From: Ornithinimicrobium sp.
GTDB taxonomy: Bacteria; Actinomycetota; Actinomycetes; Actinomycetales; Dermatophilaceae
Assembly: GCF_035267225.1 (NCBI RefSeq)
Contig: NZ_DATFMA010000052.1
Location: forward strand, 18,797-82,796
DNA length: 64,000 nucleotides
Direction: 5' to 3'
Made by a program: the position numbers and the translations under genes
Shown here: in pieces, positions 1 through 21,840 of the stretch
Position numbering within the stretch: the first letter of the stretch is position 1
Layout of the letters: each line of letters begins with the position of its first letter
Notes under the pieces: model-generated
Database searches by the model: none
What the model was told of the DNA's origin: nothing
Seen by the model: only the letters and a program-made list of their open reading frames with translations

Positions 1-929
1 GAGACGGCCCGTCGGCGGGGCGTCAGATGGATGCCGGCCAGCATGCACCGCACCGACCCGCCGGCCAGCTCGATGGTGGGCACCTCGACGTCGACGATGC
101 GGCAGCTGCGCTGGAGCACCTCGACCTGAGCGCGGTCCAGGCACGCGCGCGCCCGCCGCGACATCACCAGCAGGTGTCCGTCCGGGCCGTGCAGCTCGAT
201 CGCGTTGCCGGCGAACTCGTGCACCTGTTCAGGGCGCAGCGCCACCAGCTCGCGCCCGGAGTCCTCGACCGCAGCGACCACCTCGGCGCGGCGGCGCCGG
301 TCGGCGACCATGTCGATGCCGATGATGACGAAGTGGGTGCCGATGCACATCATGACGTTGGTGTGGTAGATCGGTTGCCCGCTGGAGTCGACGGCCTCAA
401 AGACCAGCGACTCGTAGCCGAAGCGGGTGCAGAACCGCTCGAGGGCCATCGGGTTCGCTCGGTTGGATCGGGCGGCATACACCACACGGTTCACGTGGTC
501 CAGCACCATCGCCCCGGTTCCCTCCAGGAAGATCTGGTCGTACTCCAGGCCCGAGTAGTCGGCCACCTCCTGCACCCGGTAGCTGCGTTTCAGCATCTCG
601 ATGATGTCGGTCCGCCGTTCGATCCGCCGGCTCTCCGAGTGCATCGGGTAGATCGCCACGTAGCCGCCCGCGTGGGTGGAGAACCAGTTGTTCGGGAAGA
701 CGCTGTCCGGGTGGGTGGCCAGCTCGTTCTCGAAGACGTGCACCCGGATGCCCTCCCGGGTCAGGGTCTCGGCCACCCCGGTGACCTCGGCGTAGGCGTC
801 CCGGGCGATCTGCTCGGCGCTTCGCGAGGGGTCCAGGGCCTGGAAGGCGTTGTCGACGGCGGTGGCCGGGTTGGGCGTGAAGTGGTGCGGGCGGATGAGC
901 AGGACGGCCGCGGGAGCTTGGGTGGACAC
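1..929 (-). CDS. ctlX: Citrulline utilization hydrolase CtlX / amidinotransferase-fold protein (3' end runs off the window)
   Basis: Hand translation from GTG 929: STQAPAAVLLIRPHHFTPNPATAVDNAFQ... ending ...TIELAGGSVRCMLAGIHL, typical N- and C-terminal motifs of the pentein family including the catalytic Cys. Missing from the ORF track because there is no stop in the window. Confidence 0.85.
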   Translation of the reverse strand, partial: MSTQAPAAVLLIRPHHFTPNPATAVDNAFQALDPSRSAEQIARDAYAEVTGVAETLTREGIRVHVFENELATHPDSVFPNNWFSTHAGGYVAIYPMHSESRRIERRTDIIEMLKRSYRVQEVADYSGLEYDQIFLEGTGAMVLDHVNRVVYAARSNRANPMALERFCTRFGYESLVFEAVDSSGQPIYHTNVMMCIGTHFVIIGIDMVADRRRRAEVVAAVEDSGRELVALRPEQVHEFAGNAIELHGPDGHLLVMSRRARACLDRAQVEVLQRSCRIVDVEVPTIELAGGSVRCMLAGIHLTPRRRAV

Positions 930-979
930 GCGGTCAGTATGCCTGCGCCCGCGGTCGCGCACGCACGAGTCGGCATGAC

Positions 980-2047
980 TCAGCGCAGAGTGGAGGTGGC
1001 TTCCACGAACGCCTCGCGCGCGGCGGCGAAGGCTCCGGTACGCGAGGCCAGATCGACGAGCAACGGGGTGAAGTCGGCCGAGAAGCTCACGCTGGCCTCG
1101 CGCGGCAGGAGCGAGGGCAGGTTGTCGATGGCGATCACGTCCAGGGGCCCACCGGTCGAGCTCTCGCCGAAGCGGCGGACCGGCTCGTCCCACGTGGTGG
1201 TGGCCGTGTTGAGCGGGATGAGGTTCGCCTCCGAGGTCACGTCGCAGGTCACGTCACCGATCACCCGGAGCCGCCGTGGCGCGTCGAGGTCCCGCGGGCG
1301 CACGAAGGGCTCCTGGCGGCCATAGGAGACGACGCAGTTGACCAGTAGGTCGTGGTCCAGCAGCCGCGCCCGGTCCAGCTCGCGGGTCTGGTCGATACCC
1401 CACCTGCTGATCTCCCAACCGACCCGGCCCAGCGCGTCCACCGCCCCACGGCCACTGCGACCGCGGGCGCCGAGAACCAGCGCGGAGCCGGGGGAGGAGG
1501 ACGACTGGGCGACGGCGTCGTCCAGGTCGAGCCTGGTGGCGGGCGCCAGCGGCGCCACCAGGGCTCCACGGTGGGCCAGCACGGCCAGACTGGCCCCGAC
1601 GTACCCCGCCCAGTACCCGAAGGCGACCACGCGCCGCTGGTTCACCGCCAGGTACTCGATATCGACCAGCTCACCGCCACCGTCCACGAAGCGTCGCAGC
1701 AACGCCCGCGACCCCTCCTGCTCCTTGTAGGCGTGAGCGAAGTAGATGTGGGTATGGCGCAGGGTGGCCGGCTGTTCGTCCAGCTCCTTGATGCCGACCA
1801 CGTAGGTGGTCAGAGGTGCCTCCACCCAGGACCGCGGATCGGCCACCGCACAGCCCACGTGCTCGTACTCCTCGATGGCGAAGACCCGCTGATGGGACCG
1901 CTCGACGGTCAGCGTGGCGCCGTGGTTGACGATCGTGCGGGCGTCGTCGGGAGTGATCGGGGCACGCCGTTCGGTGGGGCGGCTCTCGTGGCGCATCCAC
2001 AGGTGGAGGCCGTGCAGGTCGGTGGAGGCGGTCCCGGTCACGAGCAC
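980..2047 (-). CDS. Saccharopine dehydrogenase (NAD+, L-lysine-forming), fungal Lys1-like; AlaDh/PNT superfamily
   Basis: HLWMRHESRPTERRAPITP, GIKEL, HIYFAHAYKEQ, DIEYL, FGYWAGYVGA, DVTCD, IDNLPSLLPREAS motifs. Start placed at GTG 2047 from a TAGGCT -10 box 6 nt upstream (ORF track gives 2053). Confidence 0.85.
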   Translation of the reverse strand: MLVTGTASTDLHGLHLWMRHESRPTERRAPITPDDARTIVNHGATLTVERSHQRVFAIEEYEHVGCAVADPRSWVEAPLTTYVVGIKELDEQPATLRHTHIYFAHAYKEQEGSRALLRRFVDGGGELVDIEYLAVNQRRVVAFGYWAGYVGASLAVLAHRGALVAPLAPATRLDLDDAVAQSSSSPGSALVLGARGRSGRGAVDALGRVGWEISRWGIDQTRELDRARLLDHDLLVNCVVSYGRQEPFVRPRDLDAPRRLRVIGDVTCDVTSEANLIPLNTATTTWDEPVRRFGESSTGGPLDVIAIDNLPSLLPREASVSFSADFTPLLVDLASRTGAFAAAREAFVEATSTLR

Positions 2048-2078
2048 GCGCACAGCCTACGGGGCGGACAATGGCGTC

Positions 2079-3224
2079 ATGCTCTGGGACGTGGCGATCG
2101 TCGGTGCCGGTCCGGCGGGCTCGACGGCGGCGGTCGCGGCGCTGCGGGCCCGCCCGGATGCGCGGGTGCTGCTCCTGGACCGAGCGGACTTCCCTCGCGA
2201 CAAGGCGTGCGGCGACGGCATCGCTCCCCACGTGTTCGACGTCTGGAGCGCGATCGACGAGCCGCTCGACATCCCCGACCACCCTGAGGTGTGGTCACTG
2301 TCGCTGGACAGCGGACGGGTCCGCGTCCGGCGGGAGATGGCTCGCCCCGCGCGTGTGGTGCCGAGGACGACCTTCGACGACGCGCTGGTCGAGCGGGCAG
2401 TGCGACGAGGGGCCGTGCTGCGTCGCCACCGCGTGCGACAGGTGGACGTGACCGCCGATCACGTGGTGCTGGACGAACAGATCGCGGCCCGTGCCGTCGT
2501 CGCGGCCGACGGTGCGCACTCGGCTGTGGCGCGCCTAGCGGGCGCGACGGGCTGCTTCGCGGGTCGCTCGGCGTTCGCGCTGCGGGGGTACGCCCCGACA
2601 CCCGACTCCCGCCGAGGCATGCAGATCATCCGGTTCGGGCTCGAGCGTCAGCCCTCCTACGCCTGGTCCTTCGACTGCGGGGACGGCTGGTCCAACGTGG
2701 GATACGGCGAGGTGGTCCGGCAACGGCCCGGGCAGGCGCCGCTCACTCGGGAGCTGATGGTGCGAGGGGTCGAGATGCTGCTGCCGGGCGCCACGGACGG
2801 GGCAGTGCGATGGCTCGGGCATCACCTGCCGCTGTCCCGGGCTCGCTTCAACCACCCGGCGGGGCGGATCGTGTTCGCCGGCGACGCCGCGGGCCTGGTC
2901 AACCCGCTGACCGGGGAGGGCATCTACTACGCCGTCGCGACCGGGGCGCTGGCCGGGCGATGCGCGGTCACTCTGGCTCCGCACCTGCTGGGGCGGCGCT
3001 ACGAGAGCGTGGTGCGTCGCCTGCTCGCACGGCATCTACGCACCACGGCGACCGCTGCGAGGTTGGCTGGCCGGCCGCGGCTGCTCGACGTCGGCCTCAC
3101 GGCCGCCAGCGGCGACCAGCATGCGTTCGACGCGCTCGTGGAGATCGGGCTGGGCGCGGGGGTGGTGTCCCCGCGGCTGGTGTCGAGCCTGGCCAGAGCC
3201 GGGTCCGCCGCTGTGCTCAGATGA
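2079..3224 (+). CDS. Geranylgeranyl reductase-family NAD(P)/FAD-dependent oxidoreductase
   Basis: DVAIVGAGPAGS Rossmann motif, FPRDKACGDG, AGDAAGLVNPLTGEGIYYA. Confidence 0.85.
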   Translation: MLWDVAIVGAGPAGSTAAVAALRARPDARVLLLDRADFPRDKACGDGIAPHVFDVWSAIDEPLDIPDHPEVWSLSLDSGRVRVRREMARPARVVPRTTFDDALVERAVRRGAVLRRHRVRQVDVTADHVVLDEQIAARAVVAADGAHSAVARLAGATGCFAGRSAFALRGYAPTPDSRRGMQIIRFGLERQPSYAWSFDCGDGWSNVGYGEVVRQRPGQAPLTRELMVRGVEMLLPGATDGAVRWLGHHLPLSRARFNHPAGRIVFAGDAAGLVNPLTGEGIYYAVATGALAGRCAVTLAPHLLGRRYESVVRRLLARHLRTTATAARLAGRPRLLDVGLTAASGDQHAFDALVEIGLGAGVVSPRLVSSLARAGSAAVLR

Positions 3225-3891
3225 CGCCGAAGCCCTGGAGCGCCTTGGCCACGAACCAGGTGCCGAAGACCAGAGAGACCACGATCATGATGATCCGGTT
3301 GTTGTCCTCGAGCCATTGACCCACCACGGCCAGCACCTCGGCCGACTTCGCCGGTACGGCGAACGCCACGACGAGCACGGCGACGTGCAGACCCTCCGCC
3401 AGCACGACGAACAGCAGGAACACCAGCGTGCTCACGGGCTGGCCGACCGGGGACGCCTGGATGGCGGCGATGGCTCCCAGGGTGAACACCCAGAACTTGG
3501 GGGCGATCGCAAGCGTCAGCACCCCGAACCCGAAGGCACCCACGGGGCCCACGGTCTGCGTCATCGTCAGCCACTTCGGCGGCGGGTCGTCCGGGTCAGG
3601 ATCCTTGCGGATGCTCCGGACGCCGGAGACGAGGAAGAGCAGACCCATGATCAGCAGGATGACCGACGTCCGCGTGGTGTGGTCGTCCGAAGACATCGAG
3701 CTCCCGGAGGACAGGAGGATCCCGAAGAGGAGCCCTTGCAGCAGCCGGACCGTCGTCAGACCCCCGACGTAGCCGACCGCCGTCCGCCGCCCCTTCTCAG
3801 ACCGCAGCAGCAACACGGTGATGAGGACCTGGACCGGCACGAGGGCGCTGCCGATGATGATCGGCAGAAGGGTGGTCCACAACGATGTCAT
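3217..3891 (-). CDS. GAP/Sap family membrane protein (glycolipid-addressing protein-like)
   Basis: About six hydrophobic segments; DPDPDDPPPKWL loop, PK motif, and WLEDNNRIIMIVVSLVFG C-terminus typical of the family. Confidence 0.7.
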   Translation of the reverse strand: MTSLWTTLLPIIIGSALVPVQVLITVLLLRSEKGRRTAVGYVGGLTTVRLLQGLLFGILLSSGSSMSSDDHTTRTSVILLIMGLLFLVSGVRSIRKDPDPDDPPPKWLTMTQTVGPVGAFGFGVLTLAIAPKFWVFTLGAIAAIQASPVGQPVSTLVFLLFVVLAEGLHVAVLVVAFAVPAKSAEVLAVVGQWLEDNNRIIMIVVSLVFGTWFVAKALQGFGVI

Positions 3892-3927
3892 GACAGCGCC
3901 CTCTTCGTGCCTGCCGCGACTGCGTGC

Positions 3928-6900
3928 TCAGCCACTGCCCCCCCAGATGTCCTCGACGAACCGGTCCTGCGCCCGCAGGTCGGCCAGCCATTGCTCGGCC
4001 TGCTCCTCCGAGGAACCGGTGTGGTCGCGGTAGATCTGGCGCAAGGCGGCCCGCACCCCGGGGGCCATCGTGTTGGCGTTGCCGCAGATGAACACCGCCG
4101 CGCCCTGCTCCAGCAGCTCCCAGATCTCGTCGGCGCGGTAGGCCATCTCGTGCTGCACCCACGCCCGGCCCTCCACCGGCTCGCTGGAGTAGACGGTGTA
4201 CACCGTGGCTACCCCGTCACGCTGGTAGGCCGCCATCTCCTCGGCGTAGATATCGTCACTGGGCTCCCGGCACCCGAAGAAGACCAGTGACCGGCCGACC
4301 TCGGCCCCGTCCGCCTGCTCGGCGGCACGCTCCTGCAGGAAGCCCCGGAACGGCGCGAGCCCGGTGCCCGCGCCGACCATGATCATGGGCACCGAGGGGT
4401 CTTTTGGTGGGTGGAACGCAATGGTGGGCGTCCGCGTGAAGGCGAACACCGTGGCCCCCGGAGCCATGCCAGCCAGGTAGTTCGTGGCCACGCCAGCGAA
4501 CACCCCGTCGCGTCCGCGGTTGGGCCCGCGCACGACGGCTGCGGTGATGGCCGGTGCACGCGCGTCCGAGCGGGGGGAGGAGGAGATGGAGTAGTACCGC
4601 GGGCGCAACGGCGGCAACAGGTCCAGGTACTCCTCGAATGGCAACGCGCAGGAGGGGTTCTCCTCGAGCAGGTCGAGGACCGAGCGGTACGGCTGGACAA
4701 TCTGGCTGCGGTACCGCACCTGCGCCTCCTCGTCCTCGCCGATCAGGGCCTCCAACGCCGCACGCTCGCGAGGGTCCTCTGTGTACCGGGCGAGAGTCTC
4801 GATGCTGTCCCGGTTGGCCATGTCCTGCAGCTCGACGCAGGTGCCGAGCACCGCGAGCAACGGCACCGGCTCGTCGGTCGGCAGGTGCGTCTGGGTGCCG
4901 GGCTTCTCGGTGATGGTGATGAACATCCCGGCGTCGAGAGTGAAGCGAGCCATGACCCGCCGGATGAGCGAGATGTCGTTGCGCGGGACCACCCCGAGGT
5001 GGTCGCCGGCAGCGTAGGAGAACCCGTCGGGCAGTGCCACCTCCAAGTGCCGCACGGATCGGGCCAGCGGACTGCCGTTGGTGCTCTTCTCGAGCTCGCG
5101 GTTGACCGTCACCCGCGACGGAGCCGCCTCGTACGACATGACGACCGGGTTGGACGTCTGCTGGTTGACCGTCGTGACGCTCAGGCGAGGGCCGGTGTTC
5201 ACGGCCTGCGACGCCGTGTCCGGCAGGTCGAGAGCCTGCGCCAGGTCCGCCCAGAGCTCCTTGTGCCACGAGCGGTACTCGCCGTCGAAGTCGCCCCCGA
5301 CGTTGCCCTCTCCTCGGGGGTGCACGCGGGTCCCTCCGTGGGCCTCCAGCGCCGCATCCAGGTCGGTCGGAACCTTCTGGTACGTCGCGGCCCAGTCGCG
5401 GTCCCCGCATCCGAAGACGGCGAACCGGCCCCCGGAGAAGACGTCGCCCGGTGTCGCCGGCTCGGCCATCCACTCGACGAAGTCGCGGGCGTTCTCCGGC
5501 GGCATGCCGTTGTAGGACGACGCCACGACCAGCGTGGCTCCCTCGGTGGGCAGCTGCCGCGCGACCTCGTCCAGCGAGGCCAGGGTGACGTCGTACCCCC
5601 GCTCGGTGCCTTCAGCAGCGAGCTTGGTGGCGATCCCCTCGGCGGTGCCGAGGTTCGAGCCGTAGAGGACCCGCAGCGGCGTGGCGTGGTACTCCACGCC
5701 GGGGAGCACCGAGACCGCCGTCCCTTCGTCCTCGGCAGACTCCTTCCCGGCTGCGTCTGGGCCGCTGTGGTCGAGCTCGAAGCCGGGCCGGGGGACGATC
5801 CGGGCGTAGAACTCGTCGGGCTTGATCGTCAGCGCCGTCTTCAGCTTGAGCTCGTAGTCGAGCGCGTCCTCGATGTCGAAGCGCTGCACGACCATCCCCA
5901 GGATGAGCGCCGCCTCCTGGAGGGCGAACTGACGGCCGATGCAGGCCCGCATCCCCGTGCCGAACGGCTTGTAGCCGTGGACCGACCTTTCGGCCTTGCG
6001 CTCGGGGGACATGTGGTCGGGGTTGAACTCCAGCGCGTCCTCGCCGTACAGCTCGGTGCTGCGGTGCAGCATTGGCGTCAGGACGGTGACCGGAGTCTCG
6101 GCAGGGACCTCGTACATGCCTCCGAGCAGGGTGTCCTCGGACGGAGCCCGGTTGAACACGGGGGCCGTCGGCCAGAGGCGCAGCGACTCCTCCAGCACCT
6201 GGGTGATGTAGGTCAGCGAGTGCACCTGCTCGTACGTCGGCCAGGCGTCGTTTCCGAACACCTCGTCGACCTCCGCCCGGGCTCGCTCGAAGTACTCCGG
6301 GTTCTTCATGAGGAAGTACAACGTGAACGAGAGCAGGCCGCTGGTCGTCTCGTGGCCGGCGATGAGGAAGGTGAGGCACTGGGCGACGATGTTGTAGTCC
6401 GGCAGGCGCTGGCCGGTGCGAGGGTCGACACCGGTGAGCATGACTCCGAGGAGGTCGGACTGGTCTGCCTGTGCACCAGCGGCTCGGCGCCGGTCGATGA
6501 GCCCCTGTACCAGGCTCTTCATGTACTCCTGGTCGTCGTCGAGGCGCCGCCGCTCGCGGATGCGCATCTTGTTGGCCACCGACGGCCTCTTCTGCATGTC
6601 CTGTGCGGCCAGCAGTGTGCGCACCATGGCCCCGACGAAGGGGTGGAGCGACTCGCGGTGCAGGCTGTTGAACCGGTAGCCGAACCCGCACAGCGCGATG
6701 GTGTCGAGGGTCACGGAGGTCATGTCGTCGGTGATGTGCACGACGTTGTCGTCGTCGTTGAGCCGGGCCCACTTCGTCATCAGCTGGTCGGCGATGTCGA
6801 GCATGGCCGGCATGTAGTTCCGCATCGACGCCTGGCTGAACGGCGCCATGAGGATGTTGTGCGCCTGCTGCCAGATCGGGTCGTCGTTGGCGGTGGTGAA

Positions 6901-18210: not shown

Positions 18211-20532
18211 CTACTGGTCCTGCTCGGGTGAGCTGGCCGGGGCGGATGGGCGGGCCGCTTCCAACCGCACGACCAGAGACTTGGAAGTCGGCGTGTTGGA
18301 CACGTCCGCCACCGAGTCCAACGGCACCAGCACGTTGGTCTCGGGGAAGTAGGCCGCGGCACAGCCGCGGGCGGTCCGCTCGTAGGCGACCACACGGAAC
18401 GCCTCGGCCCGGCGCTCCCCGTCGTCGGCGACCGAGACGACGTCGACGACGGCGCCGTCGCGCAGGTCCAGCTCGCGAAGGTCCTGCGGGTGGACGAAGA
18501 CCACACGCCGGCCGTCGTGCACGCCGCGGTAGCGGTCGTTGAGGCCGTAGATCGTGGTGTTGTACTGGTCGTGGCTGCGCATGGTCTGCAACAGCAGATG
18601 TCCGTCCGGCACGTGGACCGAGGTCTGCTCGTTGACGGTCAGCCGGGCCTTGCCGGTGTCGGTGGGGAAGGTGCGCTCGTCGCGCACCGGGTTCGGCAGC
18701 ACGAACCCGTCACGCTGGGTGGCTCGCGCCTCGTAGTCCTCGCAGCCGGGGACGACGGCAGCGATGTGGTCGCGCACGACCGAGTAGTCCTCGCGCATCG
18801 AAGCCCAGCCGACGGGCGAGTCGGGGAAGCACGCCAGCGCCAGGGAGCAGACGATGTCGGTCTCCGAGCGCAGATGCGGGCTCACCGGGCGGACCCGACC
18901 GTAGGAGGCGTGCACCATGCTCATGGAGTCCTCCACCGTGACGAACTGCTCGATGCCCCCCGTCCTGTCGACCTCGGTGCGCCCGAACGTCGGCAGGATC
19001 AGCGCCTGTCGGCCCGTGACGGCGTGCGAGCCGTTGAGCTTGGTGGAGACGTGCACGGTGAGGTCGAGGTTGCGCAGCGCCGCCTGGGTCACCTCGGTGT
19101 CCGGGGTGGCCCGCACGAAGTTGCCCCCCATACCCATGAAGACGCGGATCGAGCCTTCGCGCATGGCGCGGATCCCGTCCACGACGTCCACGCCGTGCTC
19201 GCGTGGGCAGGTGATGCCGAAACGCTCGTCGAGGGTGTCGAGCCATGCGTCGCTCATCTGCTCCCAGATGCCCATGGTGCGGTCACCCTGGACGTTGGAG
19301 TGGCCGCGGACCGGGCACGCTCCGGCGCCGTCCTTGCCCAGGTTGCCGGTGAGCAGCAGGACGTTGACGATCTCGCGGATCGTGGCGACCGAGTTCTTGT
19401 GCTGGGTCAGCCCCATCGCCCAGCAGATGATCATGGTCTCGGCGTTGATGATCTGCGCGACGACTCGTTCGAGCTGCGTCATGGGTACGCCGGCGCCGGC
19501 CAGCAGGTCGTCCCACTGTAGTGCGTCGTAGTGCGCCGCCAGCTCGTCGTAGCCGTCGGTGTAGTCGGCGATGAAGGAGTGGTCCAGAGCGTTCTCGCCG
19601 CGGCGGTCCGCCTCGATGAGCAGCTTTCCGATCGCGGCGAAATAGGCCAGGTCGCCGTTGACCCGGATGTGGCAGTACTCGTCGGCCAGGTCCGTGCCCG
19701 CCCCGACCACCCCCGAAGGCTTCTGCGGGTTCTTGAACCGCTGCAGGCCCGCCTCGACGAGAGGGTTGATGGCCACGATCCGCCCGCCCGACCGCTTGAC
19801 GCGCTCGAGGGACGACAGCATCCGCGGGTGGTTGGTGCCTGGGTTCTGCCCGGCGATGAGGATCAGATCGGCAGTTTCGATGTCGTCGAGCGTCACCGTC
19901 CCCTTGCCCTCGCCCAGGGTCTGGGTCAATGCCGCACCGCTGGACTCGTGGCACATGTTCGAGCAGTCCGGCAGGTTGTTCGTCCCGAGCTCACGGGCAA
20001 AGAGCTGGTAGACGAAGGCAGCCTCGTTCGACGTGCGTCCCGAGGTGTAGAAGATGGCCTGGTCGGGGTCGTCGAGGCCGGTCAGGGCCTGTGCGAGCAG
20101 CGCGAAGGCGTCGTCCCAGGTGATCGGCTCGTAGTGAGAGGCGCCCTCGCGCAGCACCATGGGGCCCATGATGCGGCCCTGCTGGCCCAGCCAGTAGTCC
20201 GTCCGGGTGGCCAGCTCGGCCACCGAGTGCGCCGCGAAGAACTCCGGGGTCACTAGACGCTTGGTGGCTTCCTCGGCCACCGCCTTGGCGCCGTTCTCGC
20301 AGAACTCGGCCACGCTGCGGTCCCGCGGGTCGGGCCAGGCGCACCCCGGGCAGTCGTAGCCCCGGTGCTGGTTGAGCGCGGTCAGGGTCAGCGCCGTGCG
20401 CGTGACACCCATCTGCTGCTCCGAGTTGCGCAGGGAGGCGACGACGCCCGGCACCCCCGCCGCCCAGGACTTCGGCGTGCCGATGTCGAGGTCGCGGTCC
20501 CCGTGGTCGATCGCGGGCGGCTTCTGGGTCAT
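18211..20532 (-). CDS. FdhF/YdeP family molybdopterin oxidoreductase
   Basis: GYDCPGCAWPDP, FCENGAKA, FYTSGRTSNEAA, NNLPDCSNMCHES, PVRGHSNVQGDRT, RSHDQYNTTIYG. Confidence 0.92.
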   Translation of the reverse strand: MTQKPPAIDHGDRDLDIGTPKSWAAGVPGVVASLRNSEQQMGVTRTALTLTALNQHRGYDCPGCAWPDPRDRSVAEFCENGAKAVAEEATKRLVTPEFFAAHSVAELATRTDYWLGQQGRIMGPMVLREGASHYEPITWDDAFALLAQALTGLDDPDQAIFYTSGRTSNEAAFVYQLFARELGTNNLPDCSNMCHESSGAALTQTLGEGKGTVTLDDIETADLILIAGQNPGTNHPRMLSSLERVKRSGGRIVAINPLVEAGLQRFKNPQKPSGVVGAGTDLADEYCHIRVNGDLAYFAAIGKLLIEADRRGENALDHSFIADYTDGYDELAAHYDALQWDDLLAGAGVPMTQLERVVAQIINAETMIICWAMGLTQHKNSVATIREIVNVLLLTGNLGKDGAGACPVRGHSNVQGDRTMGIWEQMSDAWLDTLDERFGITCPREHGVDVVDGIRAMREGSIRVFMGMGGNFVRATPDTEVTQAALRNLDLTVHVSTKLNGSHAVTGRQALILPTFGRTEVDRTGGIEQFVTVEDSMSMVHASYGRVRPVSPHLRSETDIVCSLALACFPDSPVGWASMREDYSVVRDHIAAVVPGCEDYEARATQRDGFVLPNPVRDERTFPTDTGKARLTVNEQTSVHVPDGHLLLQTMRSHDQYNTTIYGLNDRYRGVHDGRRVVFVHPQDLRELDLRDGAVVDVVSVADDGERRAEAFRVVAYERTARGCAAAYFPETNVLVPLDSVADVSNTPTSKSLVVRLEAARPSAPASSPEQDQ

Positions 20533-20637
20533 GTTCGTGCCTCCTCAGGCCTGACCGCTCCAGTATGGAGCAGGGGTGGGTTCTGCCGACGACCGGCTGC
20601 TCAGGCGTCGCCAAGGCTCACGCGGCACGATGAGCGC

Positions 20638-21840
20638 ATGAGTACCTCACGCGACCTTGACCTGGTGCTGGTCGGAGCGACCGGCTTCGTCGGGCGGCTG
20701 ACCGCCGCCTACCTCGCTGCCAGCGCCCCGTCCGGGGTGCGCATCGGCCTGGCCGCCCGGTCCGGTGACCGGCTCGACAGGCTCGTCGCGCAGCTGCCCG
20801 ACCACGCGGCCTCCTGGCCGAGAGTCACGGTGGACGCCACGGACGCGTCCCAGGTGACCGACCTCGTGCGTCGGACCCGAGCGGTCGCGACCACCGTGGG
20901 CCCGTACGACCGCTACGGACACGAGCTGGTGGCTGCGTGTGCCGCCGCGGGTACCCACTACGCCGACCTCACCGGCGAGGTGCTCTTCGTGCGCAAGGTC
21001 ATCCAGCGTCATCATCGCCGGGCGCAGGACACCGGCGCGGTGATCGTGCCGTCGTGCGGCTTCGACTCGGTGCCGTCCGACCTCGCCGTCCTGCTGGCGG
21101 CCGACGCAGCGAGAGAGGACGGAGAGGGGCGGCTCGTCGAGGCCACCCTGCACGTGCGGGACGCGCGTGGGGGGATGGGCGGGGGCACCATCGACACGCT
21201 CCGAGGCCAAGTGGCCGCCATGCACGCCGACCCCGCCGCGCGACGGGTCGTGGGAGACCCGGACGCCCTGGCAGAAGCCCGCACCGCGTATGGCCGCGGT
21301 CCACGACCCATCGGCAAGGACACGGACTCCGGGCGCTGGCACGGCCCCTTCTTCATGTCGCCCTACAACACGCGGGTCGTGCGTCGTTCGTGGTCGCTGA
21401 CCGAAGGTGCGGCCCCGCTGGTCTACGAGGAGGTCGCGGACACGACGACGGGATGGAGGGGCGCGGCCACGGCCGCGGGCATCGGGCTCGGCACGGGCGC
21501 TCTTGCCGCCGTGATGGCGTTCCCGGTCACCCGGGGGCTGGCCGACCGGGTGCTGCCCTCCCCGGGCGAGGGTCCGAGCGAACGGACCCGGGCGGCGGGT
21601 CGGTTCGCGTTCGAGGTCGACGCCGTGACCACGACGGATGCGCGTTACCGCAGCCGCGTCGCCGCGCGGCTCGACCCCGGCTTCGACGCCACGGCGGTGA
21701 TGCTGGGCGAGTCCGGGCTCGCGCTGGCCTCTGGAGAGGCGGTGCAAGCAGGTGTGCTCACTCCGGCGACCGCTCTCGGGCAGACACTGCCTGACCGGCT
21801 GCGGTCGCACGGGTTCACCGTGGAGGTGACGCGGCAGTGA
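20638..21840 (+). CDS. Trans-acting enoyl reductase-like / saccharopine dehydrogenase NADP-binding domain protein
   Basis: LVGATGFVG, TTVGPYDRYG, GTHYADLTGE, CGFDSVPSD, GGVLTPA-like C-terminus. Confidence 0.8.
   Translation: MSTSRDLDLVLVGATGFVGRLTAAYLAASAPSGVRIGLAARSGDRLDRLVAQLPDHAASWPRVTVDATDASQVTDLVRRTRAVATTVGPYDRYGHELVAACAAAGTHYADLTGEVLFVRKVIQRHHRRAQDTGAVIVPSCGFDSVPSDLAVLLAADAAREDGEGRLVEATLHVRDARGGMGGGTIDTLRGQVAAMHADPAARRVVGDPDALAEARTAYGRGPRPIGKDTDSGRWHGPFFMSPYNTRVVRRSWSLTEGAAPLVYEEVADTTTGWRGAATAAGIGLGTGALAAVMAFPVTRGLADRVLPSPGEGPSERTRAAGRFAFEVDAVTTTDARYRSRVAARLDPGFDATAVMLGESGLALASGEAVQAGVLTPATALGQTLPDRLRSHGFTVEVTRQ

Follow-up and report, generated by a model that had tools for sequence, protein, structure and literature searches.

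The closest described relative of the dehydrogenase analyzed here is Lys1 of Saccharomyces cerevisiae, the NAD+-dependent, L-lysine-forming saccharopine dehydrogenase. The acid-base pair of the yeast enzyme is presumably K77/H96, and the residues E16, R18, E78, K99, E122, R131 and D319 are taken here to bind the substrate. By the general rule for Rossmann folds, the acidic residue D227 would bind NAD at its adenosine ribose; nothing on this particular residue was obtained from a literature search. Where strand β2 of a Rossmann fold ends in an acidic residue, NAD is expected rather than NADP. The same chemistry is carried out in the reductive direction with NADPH by lysine-ketoglutarate reductase (LKR). 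To the same superfamily belongs N5-(carboxyethyl)ornithine synthase of Lactococcus lactis (EC 1.5.1.24), which condenses ornithine or lysine with a 2-oxo acid in an NADPH-dependent reductive reaction.

The protein encoded next to the dehydrogenase belongs to the CtlX family, whose published gene neighborhood contains ocd (the ornithine cyclodeaminase gene) or aruG (Price et al. 2022, PLoS Genet, PMC9007349). Two motifs, FPNN and HTN, in which Asn takes the place of the Asp residues that bind the guanidino group, distinguish CtlX from arginine deiminases (PMC9007349). Hydrolysis of citrulline to ornithine by CtlX is a putative activity, for the founding members of the family too (PMC9007349).

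The locus lies at the edge of the window (the whole stretch of 64,000 nucleotides that was analyzed) and belongs to a genome assembly of 2.56 Mb in 127 contigs, 97% complete, whose nearest named relatives are Ornithinimicrobium MAGs. Both genes are located on the minus strand. Their shared direction and the 50-bp gap between them agree with the sequence-only reading of this DNA, which named no strand. The features are as follows.

1..929 (cut by the window edge), minus strand: ctlX, putative citrullinase (citrulline to ornithine), assigned by NCBIfam NF046062 and motifs
930..979, minus strand: dehydrogenase-ctlX spacer of 50 bp, separating the stop codon of the dehydrogenase gene (980-982) from the start of ctlX
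936..941, minus strand: -10-like hexamer CATACT, 6 nt before the ctlX GTG
980..2053, minus strand: Lys1-type saccharopine dehydrogenase homolog with AlaDh_PNT_N and Rossmann domains, matching the Lys1 structure
2054..2059, minus strand: -10-like hexamer TAGGCT, 6 nt before the dehydrogenase GTG at 2047
2079..3224, plus strand: divergent gene of a geranylgeranyl-reductase-family flavoprotein (TIGR02032, 167 bits against a cut-off of 158.8)

Beyond the window ctlX is followed by genes for a 477-aa permease, a thiamine-binding-protein-like protein and topoisomerase IB. The only family signal of the permease, referred to below as GltS-like, is a weak Glt_symporter match at 2e-11, and no conserved neighbors of its gene were found in nine other genomes.

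Counted from the first GTG, the open reading frame of the dehydrogenase (980-2053, minus strand) comprises 357 amino acids. The start is probably the GTG at 2047, the third codon, which yields the same 355 residues as the database protein (P0001) and would make the gene leaderless. The AlaDh_PNT_N domain (Pfam PF05222) is recognized at 1e-19 with 71.5 bits (cut-off 30.4), and the yeast Lys1 structures (PDB 3UGK) match the protein over residues 17-340 with an E-value of 2e-56. The fold assignment is decisive because it follows from sequence homology to solved Lys1 structures, and the Lys1-type identity proposed from the letters alone is thereby confirmed. Within the actinobacterial Lys1-type family the protein is unexceptional.

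The active-site residues were examined in an alignment to the yeast Lys1 structure and in an alignment of 87 actinobacterial homologs, both linked to ctlX and not. The equivalents of yeast E16, R18, K77, E78, H96, K99, E122, R131, F135 and D319 are all kept in the present protein and are invariant in the 87 homologs, so that none of the Lys1 substrate-binding residues checked carries a substitution specific to the linkage. The homology to yeast Lys1 (PDB 3UGK, 2Q99, 2QRJ) is thus full-length with the substrate residues kept; the bacterial protein differs from it by Gly in place of D227, Asn in place of H320 and Arg in place of K13, the last being found throughout the 87 actinobacterial homologs. 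The enzyme most likely interconverts saccharopine with L-lysine and 2-oxoglutarate. A Lys1-like substrate is favored over one of the N5-(carboxyethyl)ornithine synthase type because the Lys1 residues binding the dicarboxylate (2-oxoglutarate/saccharopine) are all retained. The LKR domain of AASS (PDB 8E8T, 8DDA) shares an AlaDh_PNT_N-type domain with the dehydrogenase (E about 2e-14, residues 21-160), but this domain and the bacterial LKR/SDH proteins are far more distant from it than Lys1 is, and no Lys9-type domain is fused or adjacent to it here.

The substitution at the NAD-ribose position deserves a closer look. Residue G219 of the dehydrogenase aligns with yeast D227 at the end of strand β2. 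All 10 members of the ctlX-linked clade have Gly at this position rather than an acidic residue, as do 30 of the 120 nearest homologs. In the tree the ctlX-linked clade is nested in a larger Gly group of Lys1-like proteins; a subgroup of the bacterial Lys1 homologs has lost the NAD-specifying Asp. The Asp-to-Gly change was considered as a marker of the linkage to ctlX and rejected, as three Gly variants that were checked (P0116, P0063 and P0045) are encoded in other gene contexts. Since the Asp is replaced by Gly, the coenzyme preference of the dehydrogenase may be relaxed towards NADP(H), which would favor the reductive direction, and an LKR-like, NADPH-using reductive reaction might be permitted.

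The identity of CtlX, likewise proposed earlier, is equally firm. The ctlX gene starts with GTG at 929-927 and crosses the window edge, its last 55 bases lying outside (full gene L002:12743-13726); 309 of its 327 codons lie inside the window. The protein scores 400.1 bits with the NCBIfam equivalog NF046062 (cut-off 334) and 6e-91 with Pfam DDAH_eukar. It contains FPNN at residue 78, HTN at residue 189 and RCM, with the C-terminal Cys, at residue 294; these motifs are kept in 26-27 of 27 family sequences. Four substitutions are specific to the clade (D68N, A150V, Y151F and L221I), and all signature motifs are retained alongside them. In sequence the protein is therefore like the CtlX described in PMC9007349. 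Its surroundings are different: neither ocd nor aruG adjoins the gene, which is flanked instead by the Lys1-like gene and the gene of the GltS-like permease.

The 50-bp spacer bears on the question whether the two genes form one transcription unit. The box CATACT at 936-941, pointed out by the sequence-only reading as a -10 box belonging to ctlX, proved to be conserved: in 8/8 related loci it is followed by 6-7 nt and then by the ATG or GTG of ctlX, while the remaining spacer is variable. The box is retained in the locus where a csbD gene is inserted upstream of ctlX, and in L004 it lies inside the end of the dehydrogenase reading frame. A similar element precedes the dehydrogenase gene: 10 related loci share TAGGGT, TAGGCT, TAGAGT or TACAGT, followed by 6-7 nt and GTG. 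A -10 box located so close to the start codon is, in Actinobacteria, the usual signature of a leaderless mRNA. Presumably, then, each of the two genes would be transcribed from its own leaderless promoter. Among the sequencing runs searched for window positions 1-6000 there was no RNA; the three runs listed were DNA metagenomes, one of them probably the source of the assembly. An operon without internal promoters whose genes are never separated is not what was found, given the conserved CATACT box and the csbD insertion in L085/86.

Read-through from the dehydrogenase gene into ctlX is nevertheless possible, because the genes of the core lie close together, with gaps of about 4-53 bp, and the searches revealed no terminator. 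The RNA of the spacer folds here no better than shuffled sequence (z = -0.44); in five loci the z-scores range from -0.44 to +1.41, and none of these spacers shows a conspicuous terminator-like structure. A promoter and terminator scan of L002 10800-15001, based on an E. coli-type consensus, gave nothing useful and no terminator in the spacer.

The order divergent flavoprotein gene, dehydrogenase gene, ctlX, permease gene is found in this genome and at L003, L004, L083/84, L085/86, L088, L089 and L090. Across these loci the dehydrogenases are 58-76% identical, the CtlX proteins 77-85% and the permeases 80-92%. The flavoprotein gene is syntenic in all loci of the clade and so is part of the conserved four-gene core, although in function it is probably unrelated. 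Both flanks of the core differ among the members of the clade while the core itself persists, and gene order is rarely so long-lived without selection. The core is not closed to insertions. In L085/86 the dehydrogenase gene is parted from ctlX by csbD, which codes for 60 amino acids. L088 has a MazE/PIN-like pair separating ctlX from the permease gene, and two further genes stand between its flavoprotein and dehydrogenase genes. The place of ctlX in L005 is occupied by what inspection by eye suggests is an IS remnant, a broken transposase-like element, while the dehydrogenase gene is kept and the permease gene duplicated. In a quick maximum-likelihood tree all ctlX-linked dehydrogenases fall into one clade of 22 rows (SH-aLRT 97). 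Since all linked proteins belong to this one clade, of uncultured Ornithinimicrobium-like genomes, the dehydrogenase gene and ctlX became adjacent a single time.

Outside the clade the two genes go separate ways. At 77 of the 80 best actinobacterial Lys1-like loci ctlX is absent within 6 kb. In a family sample of 121 genomes CtlX is present in 20 and the dehydrogenase in 14; both are present in four genomes and adjacent in the present one only, the genes being 155 kb apart in one of the other three and on separate contigs in two. The linkage, in other words, has one origin and does not recur in independent lineages. A survey of gene neighborhoods, suggested along with the original proposal, thus finds the linkage in one clade and nowhere else among the 80 best loci and the samples of 120-400 genomes, which comes close to the absence of conserved linkage that had been named as the result speaking against the proposal. 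The dehydrogenase itself, with the present genome excluded, is matched in 13/120 family, 5/300 order and 11/400 class genomes sampled (6/301 and 12/401 for order and class with this genome included). The Lys1-like protein family is represented in Actinomycetota by at least 572 species-level genomes and at least 1273 protein clusters. Bacterial Lys1 homologs are therefore patchy but numerous in this phylum, and the earlier statement that they are rare in bacteria holds roughly as a proportion, whereas their absolute number is large.

The neighbors of the two genes elsewhere are instructive. In the 19 other family genomes with ctlX, the gene stands beside a divergent Lrp/AsnC regulator gene in 9 and directly downstream of ocd in 4; in the nearest ctlX relatives outside the clade ocd occupies the upstream position. 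The fact that ctlX of the family travels with ocd and the Lrp regulator supports the published reading of a path from citrulline through ornithine to proline. The Lys1-like gene has no consistent neighbor in Micrococcales and Propionibacteriales, and outside Streptomyces its neighbors are mutually unrelated (RIO kinase, GFO/IDH/MocA, GlgC-like, PEP mutase, Sir2 and M24 peptidase). In 17-19 Streptomyces loci, however, it is found downstream of genes of an OCD/mu-crystallin-family protein and a DAO-type flavoprotein, an arrangement which suggests a route through lysine, saccharopine and a cyclic imine (pipecolate-type). The dehydrogenases of these Streptomyces clusters are 53-57% identical to the present one, but neither type of neighbor is present at our locus. 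As for the DAO-type neighbor, its best match in this genome is just 30% identical and was for this reason judged to be generic.

The metabolic context of the genome offers ordinary fates for ornithine produced by CtlX, since both RocD (ornithine aminotransferase, 482 bits against an equivalog cut-off of 378) and ArgF (ornithine carbamoyltransferase) are encoded elsewhere in it. There is no metabolic gap on ornithine for the dehydrogenase to fill. No OCD-family match was obtained in this genome (97% complete). A search of the same genome for a Lys9-type (glutamate-forming) saccharopine dehydrogenase as a partner found none. The sole PF03435 protein above the cut-off, encoded at window positions 20365-21840, is not hit by Sacchrp_dh_C, and nothing in the PDB matches it at E <= 0.001; lacking the Lys9 C-terminal domain and a structure match, it does not make a complete two-step saccharopine pathway evident. 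Because no Lys9-type partner was found, a role of the dehydrogenase in fungal-style lysine biosynthesis appears unlikely. The genome presumably makes lysine by the diaminopimelate route, as one PF02784 match indicates.

The arrangement is probably best understood as a set of separately promoted accessory genes which became neighbors once, in the ancestor of the clade, and have been co-inherited since, and not as a new pathway. CtlX would then hydrolyze citrulline to ornithine, which would feed RocD or arginine synthesis, and perhaps the cell wall, with the GltS-like permease encoded after ctlX as a possible uptake system serving CtlX; the Lys1-type enzyme would act on saccharopine, or on L-lysine and 2-oxoglutarate in the opposite direction, independently of CtlX. 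The insertions tolerated in the trio of dehydrogenase, ctlX and permease genes (csbD, the MazE/PIN pair and the IS remnant) count for such independence. The preservation of the four-gene core despite changing flanks and dehydrogenase identities as low as 58-63% counts against it, and this persistence at 58-81% identity, with short gaps and varying flanks, is what recommends a coupling specific to the clade: the product of CtlX would be condensed reductively with 2-oxoglutarate or pyruvate by the Lys1-like enzyme, and the permease would import the substrate. The reaction sequence could run from citrulline through ornithine to N5-(dicarboxypropyl or carboxyethyl)ornithine, or from homocitrulline through lysine to saccharopine, the dehydrogenase replacing ocd. 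Since this genome yielded no ocd, the gene that stands upstream of ctlX in the closest relatives outside the clade, the dehydrogenase could indeed hold the ornithine-consuming role, and a reductive enzyme working with NADPH would be consistent with Gly at the NAD-ribose position. The same Gly, however, is present in homologs without adjoining ctlX, the Lys1 substrate residues checked are unchanged, and the CtlX motifs are canonical with an equivalog-level score. Moreover, the adjacency goes back to a single origin and is missing at the 77 loci mentioned as well as from the samples taken at family, order and class level. A conserved -10 box precedes each of the two genes, and csbD intervenes in some members. 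With RocD available for ornithine and no enzyme found for a second cleavage step, we consider such a coupling unlikely. Its most specific form, in which a Gly-bearing Lys1-type enzyme was recruited to the position of ocd and, with NADPH, joins 2-oxoglutarate to the ornithine released by CtlX (or to lysine derived from homocitrulline) to form a saccharopine-like opine, would be an undescribed fate of citrulline in bacteria; this seems to us distinctly improbable.

It could also be supposed that permease and dehydrogenase work together in scavenging, so that an external saccharopine-like or opine-like compound is imported and then cleaved with NAD(P)+ to an amino acid and 2-oxoglutarate; ctlX would be an incidental neighbor or would serve to trim a ureido group. 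In the family sample 5 of the 6 other genomes with the GltS-like permease also possess the dehydrogenase, against a base rate of 13/120, but the two genes are not adjacent in those genomes, which are related and hence non-independent samples. At class level none of the 9 permease holders has the dehydrogenase, and for this reason the co-occurrence is read as a lineage effect. L005, where the dehydrogenase and two copies of the permease outlived the loss of ctlX, fits a scavenging pair, as does the fact that the Lys1 direction from saccharopine to lysine and 2-oxoglutarate needs no Lys9, of which none was found. Yet the permease lacks conserved neighbors elsewhere and is recognized by its weak Glt_symporter match only, and we regard this explanation as very improbable. 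The reading of separately promoted, co-inherited genes is the one retained here. The undescribed route from citrulline/ornithine to an opine, or through homocitrulline/lysine, that the sequence-only reading had put forward is not supported by the linkage in a single clade, the unchanged substrate residues and the presence of RocD; at the level of sequence the idea appears weakened.

Each of the two genes adds a new member to a known family, from an actinobacterium not yet in culture, and in this case gene neighborhood alone is weak evidence of a shared pathway. If the pathway were true, it would represent a new branch in citrulline/ornithine metabolism and would give a role to bacterial Lys1-type enzymes; the finding would matter more if the enzyme prefers ornithine.

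The residue of the dehydrogenase (P0001) that corresponds to the acidic residue of Rossmann strand beta2 in yeast Lys1 (Asp227) is a glycine, Gly219. The sites concerned are as follows:

window 1397-1399, codon of Gly219 of the dehydrogenase, aligned with yeast Lys1 Asp227
homologs listed with Asp227 replaced: P0001-P0019, P0034, P0036, P0037, P0045, P0051, P0056, P0061, P0063, P0067, P0096, P0116 and P0119

Asp227 is replaced in 30 of the 120 nearest homologs of the dehydrogenase, and within a subgroup of actinobacterial Lys1-like proteins its position is occupied by Gly, or by Asn in one of them. Since it is the acidic residue of strand beta2 that is replaced, the alignment suggests a coenzyme preference switched, or relaxed, towards NADP(H) in this subgroup.

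The dehydrogenase and the divergently oriented flavoprotein gene start only ~25–31 bp apart (window 2047-2079), and the -10 box on the dehydrogenase side of this gap is kept in relatives. In Streptomyces the Lys1-like gene is directly preceded by a gene of the OCD/mu-crystallin family and one for an FAD oxidoreductase of the DAO type (L017:3792-7014 and ~17–19 other loci among L017-L082), and the three together may constitute a module of lysine, saccharopine and pipecolate-type metabolism. At other loci (e.g. the plasmid-borne L022) it is accompanied by Lys/Orn N-monooxygenase, P450 and heme-oxygenase-like genes, surroundings that look like a natural-product cluster.

Two further genes, one within the window and one just beyond it, were considered:

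window 20365-21840, protein with a Sacchrp_dh_NADP domain
G000:C52:17230-18660 (L002:11228-12661 in the locus numbering of this genome), GltS-like permease of 477 aa with a weak Glt_symporter match

The former lacks the Lys9 C-terminal domain and has no match among solved structures; its gene is adjoined by molybdopterin oxidoreductase and M50B peptidase genes. The permease matches no NCBIfam family and is patchily distributed (7 of 120 family genomes, 9 of 400 class genomes). A Lys1-like gene is also present, non-adjacently, in five of the six strong permease holders within the family; at the class level, with the permease in 9/400, no such co-occurrence was found.

In the clade relative L005 the place of ctlX is taken, as judged by eye, by a broken transposase-like element (L005:7238-8264) consisting of two overlapping minus-strand frames, with the dehydrogenase gene on one side and, on the other, the GltS-like permease gene in two tandem copies. 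Among the 19 other ctlX-bearing genomes of the family, ctlX is accompanied by a divergent Lrp/AsnC regulator in nine and immediately preceded by ocd in four:

L091:7019-9563, L092, L093, L095 and five more among L102-L109, ctlX loci with the regulator and/or ocd

The already published ocd-ctlX association is therefore extended to Actinomycetota.
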